IMG/VR virus record: IMGVR_UViG_3300042741_000094
Coordinates: 1-41,958 of that record
Origin: a virus
Lineage: Duplodnaviria; Caudoviricetes
DNA: 41,958 nt
Strand: one strand, 5' to 3'
Shown: positions 12,879-40,000 of the stretch, one piece after another
How positions within the stretch are numbered: position 1 is the first letter of the stretch
How the letters are laid out: the number at the start of each line of letters is the position of its first letter
Translations under genes and position numbers: made by a program
Notes under the pieces: model-generated
Told to the model about the DNA's origin: nothing
The model's database searches: none
Seen by the model: the letters and a program-made list of their open reading frames with translations, nothing else

Positions 12879-12965
12879 TTAAATTGACCGTGACCGTGAC
12901 TGTGACTGTGACCGTGACCATGACCGTGACCGATCATAGCCCTCTCTAAGAAGGGACGCGTTCAT
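12879..12965 (-). CDS. 28-aa Arg/Ser dipeptide-repeat peptide (not in the ORF track)
   Basis: MNASLLREGYDRSRSWSRSQSQSRSRSI*; TAATG-coupled to 12965-13312. Confidence 0.7.
   Translation of the reverse strand: MNASLLREGYDRSRSWSRSQSQSRSRSI
12885..12932. repeat. Hexamer tandem repeat, 8 units (TGACCG/TGACTG/TGACCA)
   Basis: tgaccg tgaccg tgactg tgactg tgaccg tgacca tgaccg tgaccg. Confidence 0.95.
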
Positions 12966-18266: not shown

Positions 18267-19271
18267 TTAAAGCCTCTTCTTAGGTTTGTAATCCAATGCT
18301 TTTTTGAGGTTTTGATTGAATTTTGATAATGGCTCTTGTTTTGTTTGTTTTGGTGTTTCAGGTGCGCTATCTAATTCTTCAAGGTCTGTAAATGGTATTT
18401 CTGTTTGTCCATATTTTTCATTCATCAACCTTTCAAATTGTCTTTTATCTTTTGAAATTGAAGCCAACGCTTCAACCGAATACAAAACCTTTTTTAACGA
18501 CTCCCTGCCAACATCCTCCGTTAATGATTGATGTAAACGATATTTATAATTTCCAGCTCCTGTTTTAGGTGTCTTTGATTTAAGTTTATCAAGAATAAAC
18601 ACGCCTTTAGGAAGATTAGAATAAACGAATTTGTTTGTTAAATGCCCTATAAATTGTGGTTTTCTTTTTATGTTTTCGGGTGTAAATGGGATATTCCAAA
18701 GTCTGAATATTTCTTTATAAAATGAAATCTGAAACTGTTGTTGATAAGCTAATATTTCATCTGAAACAAAAAGCTTCATAATTGAAGCTAACTCAAACTT
18801 TTCACGCTCATATTGATATCCTGTTGCCTCATCAATAAGCGCAATCAAACCAACCTTAGCAAAGCTTCTAACCAATATTTCGCATTGATCGGCTATTAAT
18901 GTTTGCCTAGCTGATAGCTTTATTTCTTTACGCGCCTGTAAAAAAGCATCACAAATATCAATCAAAATTGTAGCTTCATAACCGTTTATCTTTTTTTCTC
19001 CTTTATAGCAGATTATCGGATTAAAGTGGTCCATGTCTTTACCTTTGTAAATAAAGGGAAGTAGCGATTTTTGGTTTAAATGTCTAACTAATCTGGTCCC
19101 TGCCGTTTTACTTGATTCTTCGTTTTCTTCAACCATGTTTAATGCTCTTTGCATTTCGCGGCCAGAAAGAACTCTTGTTCCATTCTCTAAAACATAGCAA
19201 TCTATTTTAACGTTATTCCCTAATTCAAGAACCCCTGAATATTTTACCGTATTTTCTTTTTCATTTTCCAT
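18267..19271 (-). CDS. P63C-domain protein (IS passenger)
   Basis: IDCYVLENGTRVLS, GYEATILIDICDAFL, GLIALIDEATGYQYERE, RKPQFIGHLTNKFVY. Confidence 0.85.
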   Translation of the reverse strand: MENEKENTVKYSGVLELGNNVKIDCYVLENGTRVLSGREMQRALNMVEENEESSKTAGTRLVRHLNQKSLLPFIYKGKDMDHFNPIICYKGEKKINGYEATILIDICDAFLQARKEIKLSARQTLIADQCEILVRSFAKVGLIALIDEATGYQYEREKFELASIMKLFVSDEILAYQQQFQISFYKEIFRLWNIPFTPENIKRKPQFIGHLTNKFVYSNLPKGVFILDKLKSKTPKTGAGNYKYRLHQSLTEDVGRESLKKVLYSVEALASISKDKRQFERLMNEKYGQTEIPFTDLEELDSAPETPKQTKQEPLSKFNQNLKKALDYKPKKRL

Positions 19272-20181
19272 TGATCAACATTTTATAAGTTAAGCGATTT
19301 TCTAGATTAGTCAAAAAATGGTTGAATCGTTGTCCTTCAAATTGTCCGCGCGTGTTATAGCGGAAGACAAATTCATCAACGTATTTTTGTAAGTGTTTTT
19401 TGCTTGTGAAATGGTAGATACCAACGATGCCACGTTTAAGGAGTGACCAAAAGCCTTCAATTGTATTTGTGTGGATTGCTCCTTTTACGTATTCGCCTTG
19501 ATTGTGCTTTACATAGTGGTGGTCATAAATGCGTTTCAGAGCGTTATATCCAAGCCATTCGTCTGTATAGATAGTAGTTGCTTCTTTTACTGATTTAATA
19601 GCTTCAAGAGTCAATGTTTCAATCTTAACATCTGAAACCAAGTTAGCGTTGAGTTTGCCGCCACGCTGAACAAAACCGACAACAGGTGTTTTATCTTTTG
19701 CGCTACGACCTTGTGAGCCTTCGACTTTTTTATCAGCATGACGATTTTTGTTTTTTCCACCTACGTATGTTTCATCAGCTTCAACAACATTTTCAAGTTC
19801 ATTATTGTTTTCGATTCCAAAACAATTACGGATTCTTTGCAGCATAAACCAAGCGGTTTTTTGGGTAACATCAATGTCACGACCCAATTGCAAGCTACTG
19901 ATACCTTTTTTGTGTGAAGTAACCAAATATATCGCTAAAAACCACTTTCGGAGCGGAACTTTTGTATTATCGAAAAGCGTATTTGTCTTAACGTTAAAGT
20001 ACTTTTTTGTGTTGTGGCAGTGATATTTATTACCTTTGCATTTATAGACTTTAGATTTGGGATCAAATGGAGAGGTAACGATAACATCCCAGCGTAAAGC
20101 CTCCAAATGATCAATGCAAGTTTGTTCATCTTTGAACTCTTTAAGTAGGTCTAAAATTGATTTGAAATTTGTATTAATCAT
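19261..20181 (-). CDS. tnp: IS1595-family DDE transposase
   Basis: VEADETYVGG, YTDEW..Y, HTNTIEGFWSLLKR, YVDEFVFRYN; degenerate Zn-ribbon N-terminus. Confidence 0.95.
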   Translation of the reverse strand: MINTNFKSILDLLKEFKDEQTCIDHLEALRWDVIVTSPFDPKSKVYKCKGNKYHCHNTKKYFNVKTNTLFDNTKVPLRKWFLAIYLVTSHKKGISSLQLGRDIDVTQKTAWFMLQRIRNCFGIENNNELENVVEADETYVGGKNKNRHADKKVEGSQGRSAKDKTPVVGFVQRGGKLNANLVSDVKIETLTLEAIKSVKEATTIYTDEWLGYNALKRIYDHHYVKHNQGEYVKGAIHTNTIEGFWSLLKRGIVGIYHFTSKKHLQKYVDEFVFRYNTRGQFEGQRFNHFLTNLENRLTYKMLINGK

Positions 20182-21591: not shown

Positions 21592-21695
21592 ATTCTTAAT
21601 TTTTTCAAAATTATTTTTGCCATCGCTCAAAAAAAGAAAAGAAAAAGGTTCAGTTCTCCGAATGAGCATTTGCGGTTTAAATCCGTACTACTGCT

Positions 21696-21754
21696 AACAC
21701 CACCTATACGCAAGTTTTGTGAAAAACAAAACCTGACGTATAGCTGTAACCGTT
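21696..21754 (-). other. attC-like recombination site (59 bp from AAC to GTT)
   Basis: AAC-ggttacag-CTATACG(T)CAGGTTTTGT-tttc loop-ACAAAACTTGCGTATAG-gtggt-GTT; imperfect palindrome with an extrahelical base, right after a stop codon. Confidence 0.7.
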
Positions 21755-21764
21755 ACCTGCAAGG

Positions 21765-21998
21765 CTACGAACCGAGCAACTGATTAAACCCTCGCTCCTT
21801 AACATCTAAATAAACCTTGTAATATTTACCATCGTTATCAAACTCTAAATAGGCTTCTAAGAAATTACCACCTATCCATTGTTTTGAGTGTTTCATTTTA
21901 TTGATAACATCTTCAACGGTTGTTTCAAATACATCGTGCCAAGTGGTAATTTCGCCATCTGCACGTTCACAAATCAATTTTAATCCTGTTGCTTTCAT
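21765..21998 (-). CDS. Hypothetical protein (cassette-borne)
   Basis: MKATGLKLIC...; frame is also open upstream across the GTT site to 22139. Confidence 0.7.
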   Translation of the reverse strand: MKATGLKLICERADGEITTWHDVFETTVEDVINKMKHSKQWIGGNFLEAYLEFDNDGKYYKVYLDVKERGFNQLLGS

Positions 21999-22220
21999 TT
22001 TATTGTTATTTAAAGTTCCTACTGATAATCCGACCAGCAGGTAACAGCGGTTTGTAGCAAAAAGGGTTGATGCGCTACATTCATCATTTGTGGTTCTAAT
22101 CGGCAGTAGTGCAAGGTTGAAACATCGTGCTTTGCTCAATGCAGGGTTCTTGTTTTCTAAATTTGCGTTTTTTTTATGAATTATTCAAACTTGTTGCGTC
22201 AATTTTGGTATAGTGGGCAA

Positions 22221-22481
22221 TTAAAGGCTTAAAAAATCGTCTACAAATTCAGATAAATCTTTATTACCGTCTTCCCATATTCTTGTTTGAACGTAATCGG
22301 AAAAAGCCTTTAACATTTCGCTTCGCCCCATAACAGCGTGTATACGTAAGGATTCATTTGCGTAATCATTCATCATTCTTATAACCTCTGATTCAAAGTA
22401 TAATTTTTCTCCTCCTGGTGATTTGTCAAACCAATCGGACTTTTCGGTTAAAAATTGTTCTGCTGTTGGTCTATTTTCCAT
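22221..22481 (-). CDS. Hypothetical protein read across a GTT crossover site
   Basis: 86 aa; LRIHAVMGRSE encodes ...GCT-GTT-ATGGGGCGAA; TTGCCCA follows the stop. Confidence 0.7.
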   Translation of the reverse strand: MENRPTAEQFLTEKSDWFDKSPGGEKLYFESEVIRMMNDYANESLRIHAVMGRSEMLKAFSDYVQTRIWEDGNKDLSEFVDDFLSL

Positions 22482-27266: not shown

Positions 27267-27509
27267 TCATATTTCTTCGGGATTATTCCTGTGCAGCATT
27301 TCGTAATTAAGATACGATTCGCCTAAATAAAATATTTGACAATTTCGGATTAAATACCACCGGCTTGTTCTGTCATCATCTGATTGTTCAAACAACAAGT
27401 CACCGCTTTTCACTCCCTTGTAATAATTGTTATTATAGCTAGATATTGATTCAACGTGTTCAAATTGCTCCATATCCAGGCCGTTTGGATAGTCATTTTC
27501 ATGCATCAT
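27267..27509 (-). CDS. Hypothetical protein
   Basis: ATGA-coupled to the exonuclease. Confidence 0.65.
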   Translation of the reverse strand: MMHENDYPNGLDMEQFEHVESISSYNNNYYKGVKSGDLLFEQSDDDRTSRWYLIRNCQIFYLGESYLNYEMLHRNNPEEI

Positions 27510-28372
27510 AACTCAAATTTAATGTTTCGTTTTTCGGTCGCTTCCTTGTTCAGTTCTTCCCAGTATTCGCGGGATAATTCTACGGCTTTTTTCATGATTA
27601 AAATGTCGTGGTCGGTTAAGTCGTAAACCATCACCGACGTGCGCTCCTGAATGGAATAACGGCTTTCAAAGTCGTACATATCTACCACGGATTGTTTAAA
27701 ATCTTCTGTTGGTCTGCCTTCTTCTTTCGATTCCTCCCATAATGACCAAATAACGCCATTTAACAGGTGTTCAGGGCAAGACATAAGGATTCGGGCTAAA
27801 TACCATTTATCTTTAAGTGTGAGCCATGAATAACCCTTACATTGCCATCTATACATTGGATCGTCACGGTCTTTATCATCATTGAACAGCTTTAACCCTT
27901 TTGGTTTGAATGGTGCTTTGCAATCAAGACCTACGGGGTTAATTAAATCAGGCGTACCCTGAATAAAGTCGTTTTGAAGCCATAATTCATTGCGCTGAAT
28001 GAACTTGCTGCCTTTATAACCCATGTATTCGCAAATCTGCCTAATCCCGCGCATTTCAACCTCATTGCCTTTTTTGGTTTCCTTGGTTGAAAACGACCCT
28101 TCAAAATCAAAGAAGTTATTGTAATGCTGTTCACGTATGTATGTCTTTGCGCCAGTTGTCAATTGGCACTGTTCAAGTTCGCCTTTTTGGATTCGGTCAA
28201 ACTTCTCTTTCAGAGCTAAATAGTCCTTTGAAGACGATTCTTTGGTTATTGCTTGAAACTTTGCCCAGCGCTCGGATTCGCTTTCGGTAAAAGCCACGGG
28301 TTGACCTAATTTTAACCCGTGGCAGATGTTACCGAGTGCAGAACAGCGTATTTTAAGATTTTCCGCTTGCAT
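27506..28372 (-). CDS. YqaJ/lambda-exonuclease-like PD-(D/E)XK nuclease
   Basis: IRCS..G, KGNEVE, GTPDL...DCK, YRWQCKGY motifs; adjacent to the RecT-like gene. Confidence 0.8.
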   Translation of the reverse strand: MQAENLKIRCSALGNICHGLKLGQPVAFTESESERWAKFQAITKESSSKDYLALKEKFDRIQKGELEQCQLTTGAKTYIREQHYNNFFDFEGSFSTKETKKGNEVEMRGIRQICEYMGYKGSKFIQRNELWLQNDFIQGTPDLINPVGLDCKAPFKPKGLKLFNDDKDRDDPMYRWQCKGYSWLTLKDKWYLARILMSCPEHLLNGVIWSLWEESKEEGRPTEDFKQSVVDMYDFESRYSIQERTSVMVYDLTDHDILIMKKAVELSREYWEELNKEATEKRNIKFEL

Positions 28373-29414
28373 TCTCCAGTCCGTTGATAATTTCGGCTCG
28401 TTGCTCCGATGTTACGATGTACTCAGATTCGACGGCCTCTAAGGTGGTTGAATTACCCTTGATTAGATCAATAATATTTTCAATATCACCAATTCCGAGA
28501 GGCTTTTTTTCCGGCAATTCCTTTGACTTTACCACCGTATGTGTTACATCAATTGTGTGGGCTACCATGTCGGCATTTTCAACAACTGAAAGTGGTAAAT
28601 CAATTTTTTCACTGTCAATAGTAATTGAATTGTAGGCTGCTCGGTAGATTGTTTTCCAAAGCATTTCATCACGCCATCCCGGAACAACTTCCTTTTTCCC
28701 TGTTTTATTTCCGTCTGCTCCATACTCATCTTTTTCACCCCCCCAAAATTCAGCAGAAGCATGTTTAGGCTTACGTTTTTCAAGGTCTGAAAGCGTGAGG
28801 TAGACAAGTTTGTTTTTTGCGGGATTTTCGATAAATTCATGGAAGTAGAACCCTCCTATCACATGACCTCGATCCAACACGTTGCCCCATTTGAAGCGAT
28901 AATTATCCGAAGGGTTATCAACATCTTTTTTGATCGGATCAAAAACGTCGTTTAATCGAATAAGTTCAACCACGACGTTATCAGGTATATCAAGCCCGTA
29001 TTTACGTGCCTTCAATTCAATGCCTCGATATTCCGGCATAAGTGCGACGTCAATTTTACCAGTGGATGAATTGGCGAATGGAACTAATGCAACATGGTTC
29101 TTTTGCAATGGGTCAAGTCCGACAAGGGCAAATGAAGCGCAATCCATAGCAAGTGCATTCATGTTGACATTTTTCCATGCAAACTCCATTTTTTCACGGT
29201 ATTTTTCCGATTTTCTCAATCGCTTTGCTTCCCACTGGAATAAGGATTGATCCAGCTTGATAAAGTAGTTTTGGATCAGTCTTTTTTGCCGATCACTTAC
29301 CTTTAGACCCGCTCCGATTGAATCAACTTCTTTCATTACGCTTGCGACAAATCGCTGCGATAAAGCCGCTTTTTCTTCTTGTGGCGCAAGGCTCTGTGTG
29401 TTTGTTGTTGTCAT
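28353..29414 (-). CDS. recT: RecT-like single-strand annealing protein
   Basis: VGLDPL..HVALVPF, YRG, VVVELI..ND.F, W..EM..KT..R motifs; paired with the exonuclease. Confidence 0.8.
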   Translation of the reverse strand: MTTTNTQSLAPQEEKAALSQRFVASVMKEVDSIGAGLKVSDRQKRLIQNYFIKLDQSLFQWEAKRLRKSEKYREKMEFAWKNVNMNALAMDCASFALVGLDPLQKNHVALVPFANSSTGKIDVALMPEYRGIELKARKYGLDIPDNVVVELIRLNDVFDPIKKDVDNPSDNYRFKWGNVLDRGHVIGGFYFHEFIENPAKNKLVYLTLSDLEKRKPKHASAEFWGGEKDEYGADGNKTGKKEVVPGWRDEMLWKTIYRAAYNSITIDSEKIDLPLSVVENADMVAHTIDVTHTVVKSKELPEKKPLGIGDIENIIDLIKGNSTTLEAVESEYIVTSEQRAEIINGLENASGKS

Positions 29415-32273: not shown

Positions 32274-32345
32274 GCTCCGATAGACAAGTGGTTAAGTCAT
32301 TGCCTTTTCACGGCAAAGTCACGGGTTCGATCCCCGTTCGGAGTG
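32274..32345 (+). tRNA. tRNA-Glu (anticodon TTC)
   Basis: Acceptor GCTCCGA/TCGGAGT, D-arm GAC..GTC with TGG, anticodon stem TTGCC/GGCAA with loop TTTTCAC, T-arm ACGGG-TTCGATC-CCCGT; CCA not encoded. Confidence 0.93.
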
Positions 32346-32516
32346 CAAATAAAAGAATCCGGCCTTCACGGATAAATGAAGGGTTATATGCTTAGTGCTT
32401 TGATAATGGCAATAGGCAGATAAAGGATCTCCCCGCCCTGATAGATGGGAGCAAGTTATTACAAGCGGTCAATGCCTGAACGGTTCAAACGGGGTTGACC
32501 GCTTAAATTTTGGAGT

Positions 32517-34605: not shown

Positions 34606-34613
34606 TATATTTG
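34606..34613 (+). promoter_or_regulatory. Promoter facing cassette array 2
   Basis: TATATTTG followed by the AACGATAA leader motif, about 60 nt before the first attC-like site. Confidence 0.55.
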
Positions 34614-34847
34614 GGGTGTAATTAACGATAAAAATTTAATAGCATGGACGAACAGAAACTAAGCCTTGCCGATAACGGCATCTGCTTTGCGAAGTGACGG
34701 TTTTCAAGGCACAAATGTTCATTAAAGCACTAAATTTTATTCAAGGCACAAGGGTTTAAATTAGCACTTCACCCGCCATTTTGCAAAGCAAGTGTTAGCG
34801 GTTCGGGCTTCTCCGCTTTTAGAAGTCCAAAGTTTAATAACAAGAAA

Positions 34848-35150
34848 ATGAACGCAAAAGAGTATTACGAAGAAATGAGAAAAGCAGGTTTAACGGAAGA
34901 TATTACTTCAAATGACGAACCTGATTACAAGCAACCTTTTTACCAAAACATTTTTAGACTAATGGAAGGTTTTTCACAAAAAAGAAAAATCACACCTGTA
35001 ACAGAATTTGAGGATGTTGTAAGACCTGTAATTAAATACCTGTGTGAAAATCATCACCCACACGTAACAGTAATTGTCACACCTACAAATGCAGAATTAT
35101 TGGAAGGTCAAAAGTCAACTGGTCAAATTATGGATTACGTTGTCGATTAG
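34848..35150 (+). CDS. Hypothetical protein (cassette 1)
   Basis: 100 aa; stop directly before CCTGACCGCTAAC. Confidence 0.8.
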   Translation: MNAKEYYEEMRKAGLTEDITSNDEPDYKQPFYQNIFRLMEGFSQKRKITPVTEFEDVVRPVIKYLCENHHPHVTVIVTPTNAELLEGQKSTGQIMDYVVD

Positions 35151-35249
35151 CCTGACCGCTAACGGATTCGGGGTTTGTGATAGTTTTATTTTGCTCTCAC
35201 AAATGCTCATTCAAAGAACTGAACTAAATTATTAAAAACAAATCTCAAT

Positions 35250-35543
35250 ATGGAAACTGAACGGCAAAATAAAATTTCATCAAACCCTCGTGTTAGGCGT
35301 AGTGCCACTCTCGGAATACACTTCGGAGCATTGGCAGACCCAATAGCAAAGCAATTAAAGAAGCAAGGGTTTAAGTATAAGGTAGAAGATGTAATGCACT
35401 TTGAAAAACAATTAGATGCTATTACACGACTGAAATTTGCTTCTTTAATTGCGGATAATGTGGCGAAGAAAGCCTATGATAAACTATACAAGAATATTCA
35501 GCGACACGTTATGAAGGTGAACAAACTTACGAAGGTGGCATAG
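35250..35543 (+). CDS. Hypothetical protein (cassette 2, start inside the attC-like loop)
   Basis: 97 aa; reads through the GTT at 35292. Confidence 0.75.
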   Translation: METERQNKISSNPRVRRSATLGIHFGALADPIAKQLKKQGFKYKVEDVMHFEKQLDAITRLKFASLIADNVAKKAYDKLYKNIQRHVMKVNKLTKVA

Positions 35544-35581
35544 GCATTACCGCTAACGTTGAATATAAATGCAGTAGCGAT

Positions 35582-35854
35582 ATGAACGAACGAATATTAG
35601 AAATACTTGAAAACCTCCTGAAACACGAAATAAGCAAGAGTGAAGCAGAAAGCCAGCTATTGCATTTATATAGTGTTGTAGGTTGTAAGCCTGATGCAAA
35701 GGCTGCCTTGAATGCAAGTGTAAGTGCGATTTACTTCTCGGATAGTAGTGATTACAGAAGCTATCATTACAAGGTAATTCGCAGCCTTACTGGATTAGAA
35801 GAAGTAACTGAGATAAACATCAATAAGTTGTTTAATGAGCTGAACCCTGAATAG
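35582..35854 (+). CDS. Hypothetical protein (cassette 3, start inside the attC-like loop)
   Basis: 90 aa; reads through the GTT at 35675 (LLHLYSVVGC). Confidence 0.75.
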   Translation: MNERILEILENLLKHEISKSEAESQLLHLYSVVGCKPDAKAALNASVSAIYFSDSSDYRSYHYKVIRSLTGLEEVTEININKLFNELNPE

Positions 35855-35927
35855 GCTTATTACCTACAACTTCGATATATGCGAAGTTCACGGGATTTCA
35901 GGATAATAATTATTAAAAAAACGAACA

Positions 35928-37019: not shown

Positions 37020-40000
37020 TTAATAGATAGTTCGTTGGTTTGTTTCTTTATCTCCGTATATCAGCACGCAAGATGCCAATGATCCTCCTGTGTGGTAATC
37101 CGGTTTTTCCGTCCTCAAATGAGCCACCCTTTGATTCCTGTACTGCTCATGCTGCTTATTGATGCAGCTAACATAGGTATCTGTTTCGCTCAGTCCAAAC
37201 AGATCAATCAAACGCTTTGTAAACCACAATTGTACGGGATCGGTTTTCAATTCGTATTCATTCACGTTTTCTCGCTTTGTCGGGGCAACAATTCGGGTGT
37301 TCAACGTCGTGTTGATAACCTCTGTTTTCGGATCGCGTTTACCGAAAAACCCCGGTACATTCAAGCAGTCAATTACTGCTGAATTACGGAAATTGATCCC
37401 TTCAATAAATTGGTTGTTATTGAACGTTGACCGCAAACGCACTAATCCGAATGCTGCCGAATCTGAATAATGAGTTAGGTTATATTTGCCCCAAATCGTT
37501 TCAATTGGATCAGCACCGAATGGCGGGGTATATTTAGCGACAAGCGTGTAAACTCCTGCCCCGTCACCCGAAAGCACTTGTACCCACGGAATCGAGGCAT
37601 AAACAGCCGTGCTTTGTTCAGGAAAGGTAATGTTTGTTGGCTGATATGCGGCTAATTGGCAATTTGATTTGTATAATTCAAATTGAATAGTATCGCCACC
37701 AATAAGTGGCCACCATGCCGTCGTTATGTTGTTCTTATCGGTGTCATCAGAGGTTAAGTCTGCAAAAACCTTCATAATATCACAGCATTTATCCTCATCA
37801 ATCGTGAATCCGAATTGCGGATAAGGCAGAACGGTTGTTTGAAAACTTAAACGCACTTGCTCAACGACAATAACGTTATTAATGAAATGTTTAAGGTAGA
37901 TTGTTTGCGATCCTGATTGCAACTTAGTGCAGTCAATCAGTGATTCATAGGTGATTTGGGAAGGCGTGTCAACCGTTGAATACAGCCGCGTTTCACCTGT
38001 AACTGGATATATCGGGCTTGACGGGTTGTTATCGTGATCGTAATTGGTTGATAGCATAAATAAAGGGCTTGATTGATATGGTTCAATTGCCATTTGACCC
38101 CAATAAAAGCCCGGAGCGTACACAATTGCTGGTCCCGCAGTAACCACCACTTTAACACGCATTATCTCACCTTTTATCAAGCCAGTTACCTGCTGCCCTG
38201 TTGATTCAATGTAATATTCAATTGCTGCCGATCCTTGCCACTGGTCTAATCCGGCACGCACCTCGTTGAAATCGTAAAGATCGCCAATTTTAAAGAAATA
38301 TTCGTAGTTGACCGTTTCTGCCTCTAAGAATGTTCTGAGATAAATACCGTAACCATTTGAAAAATAATTCAGCCAGTTCTTTTTTTGGTTAGGATAAAAC
38401 AGGTTCGGTGCATTGGGTTCAGTTAGCCATTGCCGCCAATTGAATTGAACCGGATAATACAGATCGACACCAAATTGGTTAACCTGATCAGGATTAGCCC
38501 CTAATCTCGTAACACGAATGTCATTCATCCCGCTTGTGGTGGGTAATCCGTCGTTCTTAGGCTGGCTAACGTTGATTTGAGTTATTCCGGAACTGTCAAT
38601 ATATGGCTGATCAGTTAGGCTGATCGTTCTATTTTCCAATACGAAATAGTTCGAATTATCGACAATTTCAGCCGCCACAACTTCAAATGTGATCTGATTG
38701 TAACGTCTGTTTTTAAGTAACAACAACTCCGCTTTCAGTAGTGCATTATCTTGTGATGAAAAGAACCCGCCTTGACCTGCATTTGTGCCATCCTGAATCA
38801 ACGTAGGATCGTCAGCTATCCAATTAGCCCATTCAGGAATAGCTTGTACCGTGTCGAGTGAAACGGTTGCGTTTGGCGTTTTTTCGAGTTGGCCGGAAAA
38901 TAACAATTGATTTACATTTCCTGACTGTGACCAAATTTTAAAGTAACGATCATCATCAGCACGTCCGGCCATGAATATTTCAAAGTCAGGATTGGGAACA
39001 AAATCGAAATCAACGGTGTAAACGCCTAACGCGTAAACAACTGAATTGATAATAATGTCATAACCCGCCCCGTTATTATTCTGAATGCTTGTGTATGTGT
39101 TGGGAATAATTACCCCGCCAATTTCCCAAGCAAGGTTTAGTATTCCGTGAACTGCCTGAGAAAAATAGTTTTGATAAAAATACGTTTGATCGTTCGATGT
39201 GTAAACAGACCCTAATGCTAATTCGCTGCTTGTGCTTTGTATTTGAACGACATGATTTGTTGTGCTATCGTAATAGATCGACCCTTCCGATATGCCTTGT
39301 ATAACCTCGCTATCAGGCTGTTGATTTAAGAACGCTTGACCAAACCAACCACTATAAGACGGGTTAAAATTCCATTGATAAACGGTTGGATTAAGTGTTA
39401 CTCCTTGCTTGCTGTACCATTCAACATCAAAGTAGAAATTCAAAGGACGCTCATCATTATGGAAGCAAGTGGGGTTAATCGTTTCAATTACAATTGAATA
39501 TTGACGGGTATTATTGAAATCAGCGTTTCGGCTCATTAAAACGTTAAAGAAATCAAACATTCCGCTTTTCTTTCCGATCTGTGTCAATGTAATTGATCCA
39601 CCAACCCCCACACCTGTTGCGTCGCCTCCGAATCGGGTAAATGATCCGTCAATGGTTGAGGCTCTATATGCTCCGGTAGCTGCTGTGAATTGTCCTTGTG
39701 TTTTTGAGGCGTTGTAATCGTAAAGATTTGAAAGATTTATATCCGTGAAATTCACGTTTAAAATAAGTTCAGCCCTCAAGTCTGTTTGCCTTATTAACAC
39801 CCTGTCTGATCCGCTGTAATATGTCTTAATAAATGAAGGTGACAACGTGGCGATAGATGCTACTTTTACAGTGAACAGGTTGTAATTTATCGCGGTAATC
39901 GTTGTTGTTTGCGTGTCTGTAGTGCCGCCTGATAGCGTTACTTCGATAAAAATATTTCCGTTTAAAGCGAATCCATTCAATGATTCGTAGTCGAAAAACT

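Follow-up and report, generated by a model that had tools for sequence, protein, structure and literature searches.

An integron-like, integrase-less cassette array in a phage contig, with genes of reversed polarity and protein fronts and backs re-paired at a valine codon

Results

The contig and its two arrays

We begin by considering the window, that is, the whole stretch of 41,958 nt that was analysed. It is a circular phage contig with a 127-nt terminal repeat and carries terminase, portal, head and tape-measure genes. A motif scan finds no tyrosine-recombinase motif within these 41,958 nt, and the contig holds no gene for an integron integrase with the IntI-specific insert. The sole Rfam match on the contig is a tRNA; a tRNA-Glu(TTC) lies at 32274-32346 (+). 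The host is probably one of the Bacteroidota, because the array matches Flavobacterium phages in seven of eight records and because matches to the motif of its site family, among the 80 titles listed, are almost confined to Bacteroidota genomes.

The contig contains two cassette arrays. Each full site has a left arm with an AAC, a loop, and a right arm with a GTT; we call the stretch from one GTT to the next AAC a body, and the part of an ORF that lies in the loop before the GTT its head. Array A (34667-35897, +) has three full hairpin sites, and its features are as follows.

34606-34613 (+): TAnnTTTG element upstream of array A
34667-34803 (+): site A0; AAC 34674-34676, 117-nt loop, GTT 34794-34796; no head reaching the junction
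34794-35163 (+): body A1; 54-nt leader and ORF 34848-35150 with its own ATG
35154-35301 (+): site A1; AAC 35161-35163, 128-nt loop with ATG 35250 and a 14-codon head, GTT 35292-35294
35250-35543 (+): 97-aa ORF; head of residues 1-14 (predicted disordered), Val15, predicted three-helix body
35292-35557 (+): body A2; ends complementary to each other
35548-35684 (+): site A2; AAC 35555-35557, 117-nt loop with ATG 35582 and a 31-codon head, GTT 35675-35677
35582-35854 (+): 90-aa ORF; predicted two-helix head, Val32, predicted three-helix body
35675-35870 (+): body A3; closes with AAC 35868-35870
35871-35897 (+): terminal half-site of array A; no right arm

Array B (22481-20585, -) is partly decayed and has one full site.

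22221-22481 (-): 86-aa ORF; Val50 at GTT 22334-22332; right arm only; degenerate body end near 22208
21752-22045 (-): body B2; ORF 21998-21765 with its own start; only a right arm in front
21690-21762 (-): site B2; 53-nt non-coding loop
20610-21698 (-): body B3; N6/N4 DNA methyltransferase gene with its own start, followed by a terminal half-site

TAnnTTTG elements lie upstream of both arrays; we take them to be a possible Bacteroidota -7 promoter box, with a -33 spacing that misfits. Several smaller features accompany the arrays. An IS1595-family transposase gene followed by a P63C-domain gene (18267-20181, -) adjoins array B, and a short hexamer tandem repeat is intergenic at 12885-12930. 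A 25-nt motif occurs once in loop A1 (35200-35224) and once, 92% alike, in the leader of the methyltransferase body (21648-21672). A short ORF (34645-34698, +) runs through the first AAC of array A, which it reads as Asn, and ends within loop A0.

The initial annotation of this DNA had two ORFs starting inside the loops of attC-like sites, and they do so, ATG 35250 in the 128-nt loop and ATG 35582 in the 117-nt loop. The GTT is an in-frame Val in both, codon 15 of the first and codon 32 of the second. The bodies of the second and third cassettes had been said to lack a start at their 5' ends. Body A3 indeed offers no ATG in frame and just two TTGs, as codons 12 and 52; in body A2 the first ATG is codon 35, and the TTG at codon 14 falls inside a motif conserved in six of six aligned homologues. 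The other cassettes of the two arrays (34848, 21998 and the methyltransferase) have their own starts. A third gene (22221-22481) had been added as a junction of the same phase; its GTT is codon 50 and does keep the Val phase, but the left arm is absent here and the body has ATGs at codons 2 and 7. Arm pairing at this site scores 11 at best, whereas the four full sites of the contig reach 23.5-35.5. Its head occurs in a complete 182-nt loop at locus L001, where the two heads are 83% identical and the bodies 46%.

Each array ends in a terminal half-site (35871-35897, +, and 20609-20585, -), and the two are similar, both beginning with AAC-T. Of the 47 non-cellular half-sites at array ends, 24 start with this T; of the 712 full loops, 10 do. 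We regard these half-sites as candidate attI-like or secondary targets. The loop of site B2 is common to 30 viral loci, where it stands between varied flanks.

The site family and its polarity

We turn our attention to the sites. They were called by a detector that combines a weight matrix with arm pairing, built from 156 seed sites, which replaced a too permissive first detector based on pairing only. It makes 290 calls on real loci versus 3 on codon-shuffled copies and finds 712 sites over all loci. Copies of the contig (L003, L004, L139) are excluded from the counts; L270, a contig of 5.7 kb assigned to an archaeal MAG, is counted apart or with the phages, and 11 of its 12 bodies are phage-like. 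One of two pattern scans was noisy, most of its matches not being sites.

As in attC, an imperfect inverted repeat lies between AAC and GTT R boxes. The two ends of a body pair well in 84% of 202 bodies, compared with 6% of mismatched ends, and this pairing spans 13-18 bases. On one strand the sites read AAC-G...T-GTT, which is also how the published bottom strand of aadA7 reads in a table of Qi et al. (PMC9892861, Table S3), and it is the AAC of the attC bottom strand that the integrase is described as cutting (PMC5027507). The coding strand of the phage has this bottom-strand form; likewise, the bottom strand of P12002L_attC1 is the coding strand of phage P12002L. Genes lie on the attC-bottom-like strand in 133 of 136 viral bodies, 11 of 11 from GenBank phages, 8 of 10 from metagenomes and 3 of 100 from cells (L270 apart). 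The classical arrangement, a gene upstream of attC on the top strand, is therefore reversed in the 133 viral bodies and kept in 97 of the 100 cellular ones.

The attC-bottom-like strand is the better-folding one in 91% of 388 phage sites; site A0, whose non-coding strand folds better, is an exception. The sites thus combine a polar unpaired spacer with a better-folding recombinogenic strand, in the G/T versus A/C polarity of aadA7, the central spacer being longer by 2-4 nt on the AAC arm, an asymmetry that exceeds that of aadA7. Extrahelical bases, which attC carries on the arm opposite the AAC, are mostly absent: of 253 phage sites, 166 have no bulge in the first 16 stem positions and 34 have one in the right arm, the corresponding numbers for 234 cellular sites being 151 and 48; within the contig, site A1 alone has a right-arm bulge there. 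With three full sites in array A and no recombinase motif on the contig, the locus corresponds to a CALIN (at least two attC-like sites with no integrase nearby), subject to this scarcity of extrahelical bases. Adjacent sites of opposite polarity are rare, 3 of 269 pairs in phages (with weak scores, two of them duplicates) and 0 of 165 in cells. At L146 and L147, cassettes in the host orientation stand within arrays that also hold cassettes in the phage orientation, site polarity being unchanged, so that the phage and host cassette pools can apparently mix.

The unit of movement

The next question is which segment moves. Since the phage genes are on the attC-bottom-like strand, the canonical cut would fall at the left arm, before the loop. 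When pairs of loci with the same loop share one flank, it is the downstream flank in 59 phage pairs and the upstream flank in 1 (13 versus 1 families); in cells the numbers are 29 and 1. Pairs sharing neither flank number 435 in phages and 941 in cells, the phage figure being inflated by a pattern scan whose query was a single loop, last bases included; for the same reason the scan cannot place the right breakpoint of that loop. Under a stricter 120-nt test, 9 of 12 body families retain their upstream loop and 1 of 7 retains the downstream one. Between the cultured phages 6H and FPSV-D15, full identity falls to none at TAAC|G, and other near-identical pairs behave likewise. Contigs matched to the window end at 34671-34672, 35161-35165, 35557-35558 and 35870, again placing the crossover, by comparison, at the AAC. 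Loci L140-L143 retain head and body together with new neighbours on both sides. A search for joints of an excised form, in 8 runs compared with the array, all of them consisting of contigs, found none.

From the joint travel of loop and body and from the breakpoints at AAC, it follows that the mobile cassette is, on this comparative evidence, the loop together with its downstream body: an entire ORF whose attC polarity is reversed. The initial annotation had made GTT the crossover point and had set these cassettes apart from classical ones as not carrying whole ORFs. Neither idea is supported: the loops follow the downstream body, the breakpoints are at the left-arm AAC, and what moves is a complete ORF, with its polarity reversed.

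A further boundary is present in cassette A1. Contigs related to site A0 have loose ends at 34671-34672 and 34793, and those related to body A1 break at 34851-34852 and 35164-35165. The 54-nt leader of this body (34794-34852) is found before different genes, with breakpoints at the ATG (contig, L145, L220 and two runs). These comparisons add the junction of leader and ATG to AAC and GTT as a third place where modules meet. Leaders of 90-110 nt that resemble loop interiors are common to L029 and L195, and to L209 and L232.

Heads and bodies are re-paired at the Val

Under the exchange proposed at first, the halves before and after the Val should occur with different partners, and when they are compared separately this is what is found, with the junction at the GTT. 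The head of ORF 35250 as it stands in the window is present in none of five homologues: in three a different head leads up to the Val, the fourth has its own start and the fifth an unrelated front. The body (35291-35557) stands behind the head type of homologue P0096 in contigs of two studies, with 14 differences (about 95% identity) and breaks at both ends; one of these contigs is probably the source of P0096, in which case this DNA match is not independent of the homologue comparison. One further contig has the head (35259-35296) fused in frame to a different body. Each half of ORF 35250 is thus found with other partners, joined at T|GTT.

For ORF 35582 the head family is kept in 24 of 28 close homologues and lost in 4. 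Among 83 proteins with its body, 24 have its own head and the Val, 23 its own head without the Val, 16 another head with the Val, 14 another head without it, and 6 are headless, a few of the Val calls being possibly due to chance. As the 23 proteins that keep the head without the Val indicate, the pairing is preferred rather than free. Two pairs of proteins (P0021/P0001 and P0028/P0012) have bodies identical over 50 columns of the body tree and unrelated heads; that tree has low resolution, with 11 of its 78 branches starred, and serves here for identical bodies alone. Other heads precede the GTT of this body at L130, L151, L152 and L154. One protein, P0056, contains two junction-type motifs, which suggests a three-part fusion.

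Taking all 98 junction ORFs together, near-identical heads precede unrelated bodies in 10 pairs. Exchange at T|GTT is seen in 3 of the 12 phage body families and in 1 of the 14 cellular ones, with sharp edges in these small samples, and bodies that are complete and whose two ends still pair acquire a different loop while remaining 90-97% identical. Among the six same-body pairs that align best, five share sequence from just 1-2 bases before the GTT onwards, and one swap pair shares 8 extra bases there. Some of the swapped proteins come from short metagenome contigs and may be chimeras. We hold the pattern of reassorted heads and bodies with high confidence. The proposal that recombination at GTT swaps N- and C-terminal parts therefore survives in its sharp edges at T|GTT, but not in making GTT the usual crossover; on the comparisons above, the Val swaps are a second, rarer layer beside whole-ORF movement.

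Reading phase and translation of the heads

Of 162 non-redundant phage bodies, 46 depend on an ATG in the loop. Their phases are 37 with GTT as Val, none in the third phase and 9 with G-TTA as Leu, compared with 23/18/24 for bodies with their own start. Stop codons in the consensus of the site account for part of the gap in the third phase, so that the fair contrast is Val against Leu. In loci found without a protein query the phases are 24/0/6 versus 21/13/20 for own-start bodies, and the Val to Leu ratio is 24:6 versus 21:20 (Fisher p 0.015). ATG runs of at least 10 codons that reach the junction number 81/23/30 over the three phases in 194 phage loops, versus 24/21/17 when the loop interiors are shuffled, the maximum in the Val phase over 300 shuffles being 37; in 234 cellular loops there is no excess of such runs over the shuffle null. 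The frame had been described as fixed. Mostly it is one phase, but the Leu cases make it a preferred frame and not a fixed one.

In five copies of the ORF 35582 head we count 10 synonymous and 4 replacement variants, whereas shifted frames give 1:14 and 0:15. From the ratio in the real frame, this head is under purifying selection and is likely translated.

What the heads and bodies do

In the structure models, the head of ORF 35250 is predicted to be disordered (pLDDT below 50 for residues 1-22) and its body folded (alignment of 6). The ORF 35582 model (mean pLDDT 88.9) consists of five helices, the second of which ends at the Val. Pfam gives no above-threshold family for the three junction ORFs, and a Foldseek search of viral models no match at E 0.001 for the 35250 or 35582 model; single-protein scans of viral contigs return no match for either ORF. 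The body of ORF 35250 matches PHROG 25508 (E 1e-4).

The heads could be nothing but interchangeable donors of a start codon, the fusions adding no new activity, and we consider this quite possible, if somewhat short of probable. It would agree with the disordered head of ORF 35250, with the three other heads or none that its body takes, and with the shortness of heads in general (median 23 aa over the 98 junction ORFs; leaders of 13-20 aa in methyltransferase bodies). It agrees less with the 44 of 98 heads that have at least 25 residues, up to 88, or with the 35582 head, which is predicted to be folded, is conserved and stays with its body at 40-60% identity. By eye, that pairing persists even at L153 and L156, which have no visible site. 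Domain shuffling, as proposed at first, would thus describe the predicted two-helix head of ORF 35582 but not the predicted disordered one of ORF 35250. Judging from the models, what many heads supply is likely no more than a start codon, while some would be folded modules.

Host arrays and a candidate recombinase

Arrays of the same sites occur in 46 cellular loci with at least two sites. Eight of these have a tyrosine-recombinase motif, six of them co-oriented at the array end and two otherwise placed, while none is found within the fetched flanks of 61 viral loci with at least two sites. All eight candidates score 193-219 on TIGR02249, below the cut-off of 265. The one that was aligned, from L259, misses about 45 residues of VchIntIA (2A3V), a region taken to hold I2. 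According to the integron literature, I2 reads the extrahelical bases that set strand choice (PMC4792948), and deleting these bases relaxes strand choice in IntI1 assays (PMC5027507). The chromosomal arrays of Bacteroidota at L259 (11194-12168), L274, L282, L305, L310 and L313 have up to 20 called sites per 20 kb, and their recombinases are Xer-like, co-oriented and below the integron-integrase cut-off. We infer the tie between such host enzymes and the phage arrays from position only.

Discussion

A model for cassette movement and head exchange

We lean towards a model in which the phage array, itself integrase-less, is acted on by a host recombinase, whole genes being cut at the left-arm AAC and a rarer exchange at the right-arm GTT re-pairing fronts and backs in frame. 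Its comparative basis, shown at the level of DNA sequence, is the reversed polarity, the joint inheritance of loop and body, the breakpoints at TAAC and T|GTT, the Val-phase excess and one head under purifying selection. Phage genes run opposite to those of host arrays, which would place the hairpin loop before the gene, where it often encodes the start. The enzyme would be a host tyrosine recombinase, as found beside the chromosomal arrays of Bacteroidota, acting in trans, and its substrate would be single strands folded during phage replication. With no IntI insert in the enzyme and few extrahelical bases in the hairpins, strand choice would be lax, so that 5'-AAC-3' of either strand could be cut. 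One host enzyme would then cut mostly the AAC of the coding strand and sometimes that of the opposite strand, which is the Val codon. A GTT exchange between two sites would keep orientation, and, the GTT being at once junction and Val codon, Val-phase heads would stay in frame; selection would remove out-of-phase products.

The weak point of cutting on either strand is that inverted cassettes would be expected, yet opposite pairs are nearly absent, which the next two explanations account for more easily. Nor do cuts at AAC or GTT account for the class of breakpoints at a start codon (34851-34852). IntI1 has been tried on one member of the site family, P12002L_attC1, and the reported results (PMC9892861) include no verified recombinants. 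A loop swap through a second strand exchange at the L box was also considered and is not favoured: it predicts that the 2-3 bases before T-GTT follow the body, and these differ in most same-body pairs.

Whole-ORF movement could be site-specific and the Val swaps the work of short-homology recombination by the phage's own annealing system, in the manner of boundary sequences or the PeSLs of T4. The contig does have an exonuclease gene (27506-28372, by match), and the gene beside it (28353-29414) is presumably RecT-like. Such recombination keeps orientation and fits the lack of inverted sites, the arms of many sites have short motifs in common, and the swap pair with 8 extra shared bases would be expected of it. 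We nevertheless think it unlikely, as the other best-aligned pairs share only 1-2 bases before the GTT and as PeSL crossovers are described as spread over a zone (PMC2839356).

Comparably improbable, in our view, is that the GTT junction is the point where cassettes are assembled, a genesis step joining a loop to a gene body, with head swaps as its by-product rather than as errors of strand choice. The many same-loop pairs that share neither flank (most of them, even if the phage count is inflated), the body ends tailored to pair, the 6 of 83 bodies that stand free without a head and the absence of inversions would suit it; finished bodies that change their loops at such high identity resemble instead an exchange between existing cassettes, and no genesis enzyme was found in the material analysed here. 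A classical polarity, with GTT as the normal crossover and a new head-body fusion at every move, would give sharp swaps at T|GTT and a dominant Val phase, but it is largely refuted, and very improbable, given the 59:1 ratio, the retention of upstream rather than downstream loops (9/12 against 1/7) and the intact head-body pairs of L140-L143.

Relation to known systems

Returning to the preferred model of a host recombinase with two uses of the arms, we compare it with what is already in print, namely phage CALINs, read-through of att sites and engineered in-frame attC linkers. The phage CALINs of Qi et al. (2023, PMC9892861) are likewise integrase-less phage arrays with methyltransferase cargo, and their P12002L_attC1 belongs to the present family; phage P12002L has 11 sites of this family on the coding strand, and at least three of its annotated genes cross the Val. 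The passages of that paper that were consulted give no description of bottom-strand genes, starts in loops or head-body exchange. P12002L_attC2 (L212, minus strand near 37260), reported there to recombine with IntI1, resembles a reversed terminal half-site and not a full hairpin of this family, which may explain the 'divergent' attC directions reported.

Classical integrons (PMC5027507, PMC4792948) share the AAC...GTT hairpins, the polar spacer, the better-folding strand, the pairing cassette ends and a crossover mapped to AAC, and the host arrays, with classically oriented genes beside a tyrosine recombinase, resemble them further. They differ from the present case in gene orientation, in extrahelical bases, in the 2-4 nt spacer asymmetry, in the I2-containing insert that the host enzyme lacks, and in the exchange, without inversion, at the second R box. 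Translation of att sites is known from attI1 (ORF-11, ORF-17 and ORF-18), from short attC ORFs and fused cassettes (PMC8876359) and from GCUF1-OXA-28 (PMC3375312), where a site also supplies ribosomes or is read through; these are coupling peptides or single fusions, mostly by loss of attC, whereas phage read-through of an intact arm is systematic (46/162 bodies), phase-biased and conserved. Synthetic attC sites in peptide linkers have been proposed as in-frame joints for shuffling modules (Nivina et al. 2020, PMC7439510). Those are engineered and use the canonical AAC crossover; the phage case is natural and has its protein joint at the other arm. In the PeSL cassettes of T4-type phages (Arbiol et al. 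2010, PMC2839356), repeated intergenic elements also shuffle small phage ORFs through circles, but the exchange takes place between genes, in homologous zones, with chimeric ORFs avoided, unlike the base-precise breakpoints here. The array does not behave as a PeSL or boundary sequence would, with an intergenic crossover in a shared homologous zone: most junctions share 4-5 bases, and one is intragenic.

The array works like a set of integron cassettes, and we call it integron-like; the scarcity of extrahelical bases, the orientation of the genes and the absence of an IntI insert are the reasons why it is not filed as an integron. In the open-access literature we found no description of reversed polarity or of systematic in-frame exchange of heads.

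Implications

In the host arrays, hairpins that mostly lack extrahelical bases stand beside recombinases without the IntI insert; this bears on the chicken-and-egg problem, stated in the literature (PMC4792948), of how I2 and attC co-evolved, and on the origin of cassettes. Surveys in the style of IntegronFinder have almost no integrons in Bacteroidetes (PMC9024848), which contrasts with the arrays in 46 cellular loci here. More speculatively, and with considerable doubt, we entertain the idea of a pre-integron in Bacteroidota and their phages: its recombinase, without the I2 insert, would cut hairpins without extrahelical bases at both R boxes, phages would use the reverse strand as a form of exon shuffling at the DNA level with Val as the splice point, and exchange at the second arm would be cassette genesis.

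Gene families built from these ORFs would be chimeric at the Val. For the phages, the arrays would offer a route by which the small orphan genes of variable regions are made, whole-gene moves using one arm and in-frame re-pairing the other.
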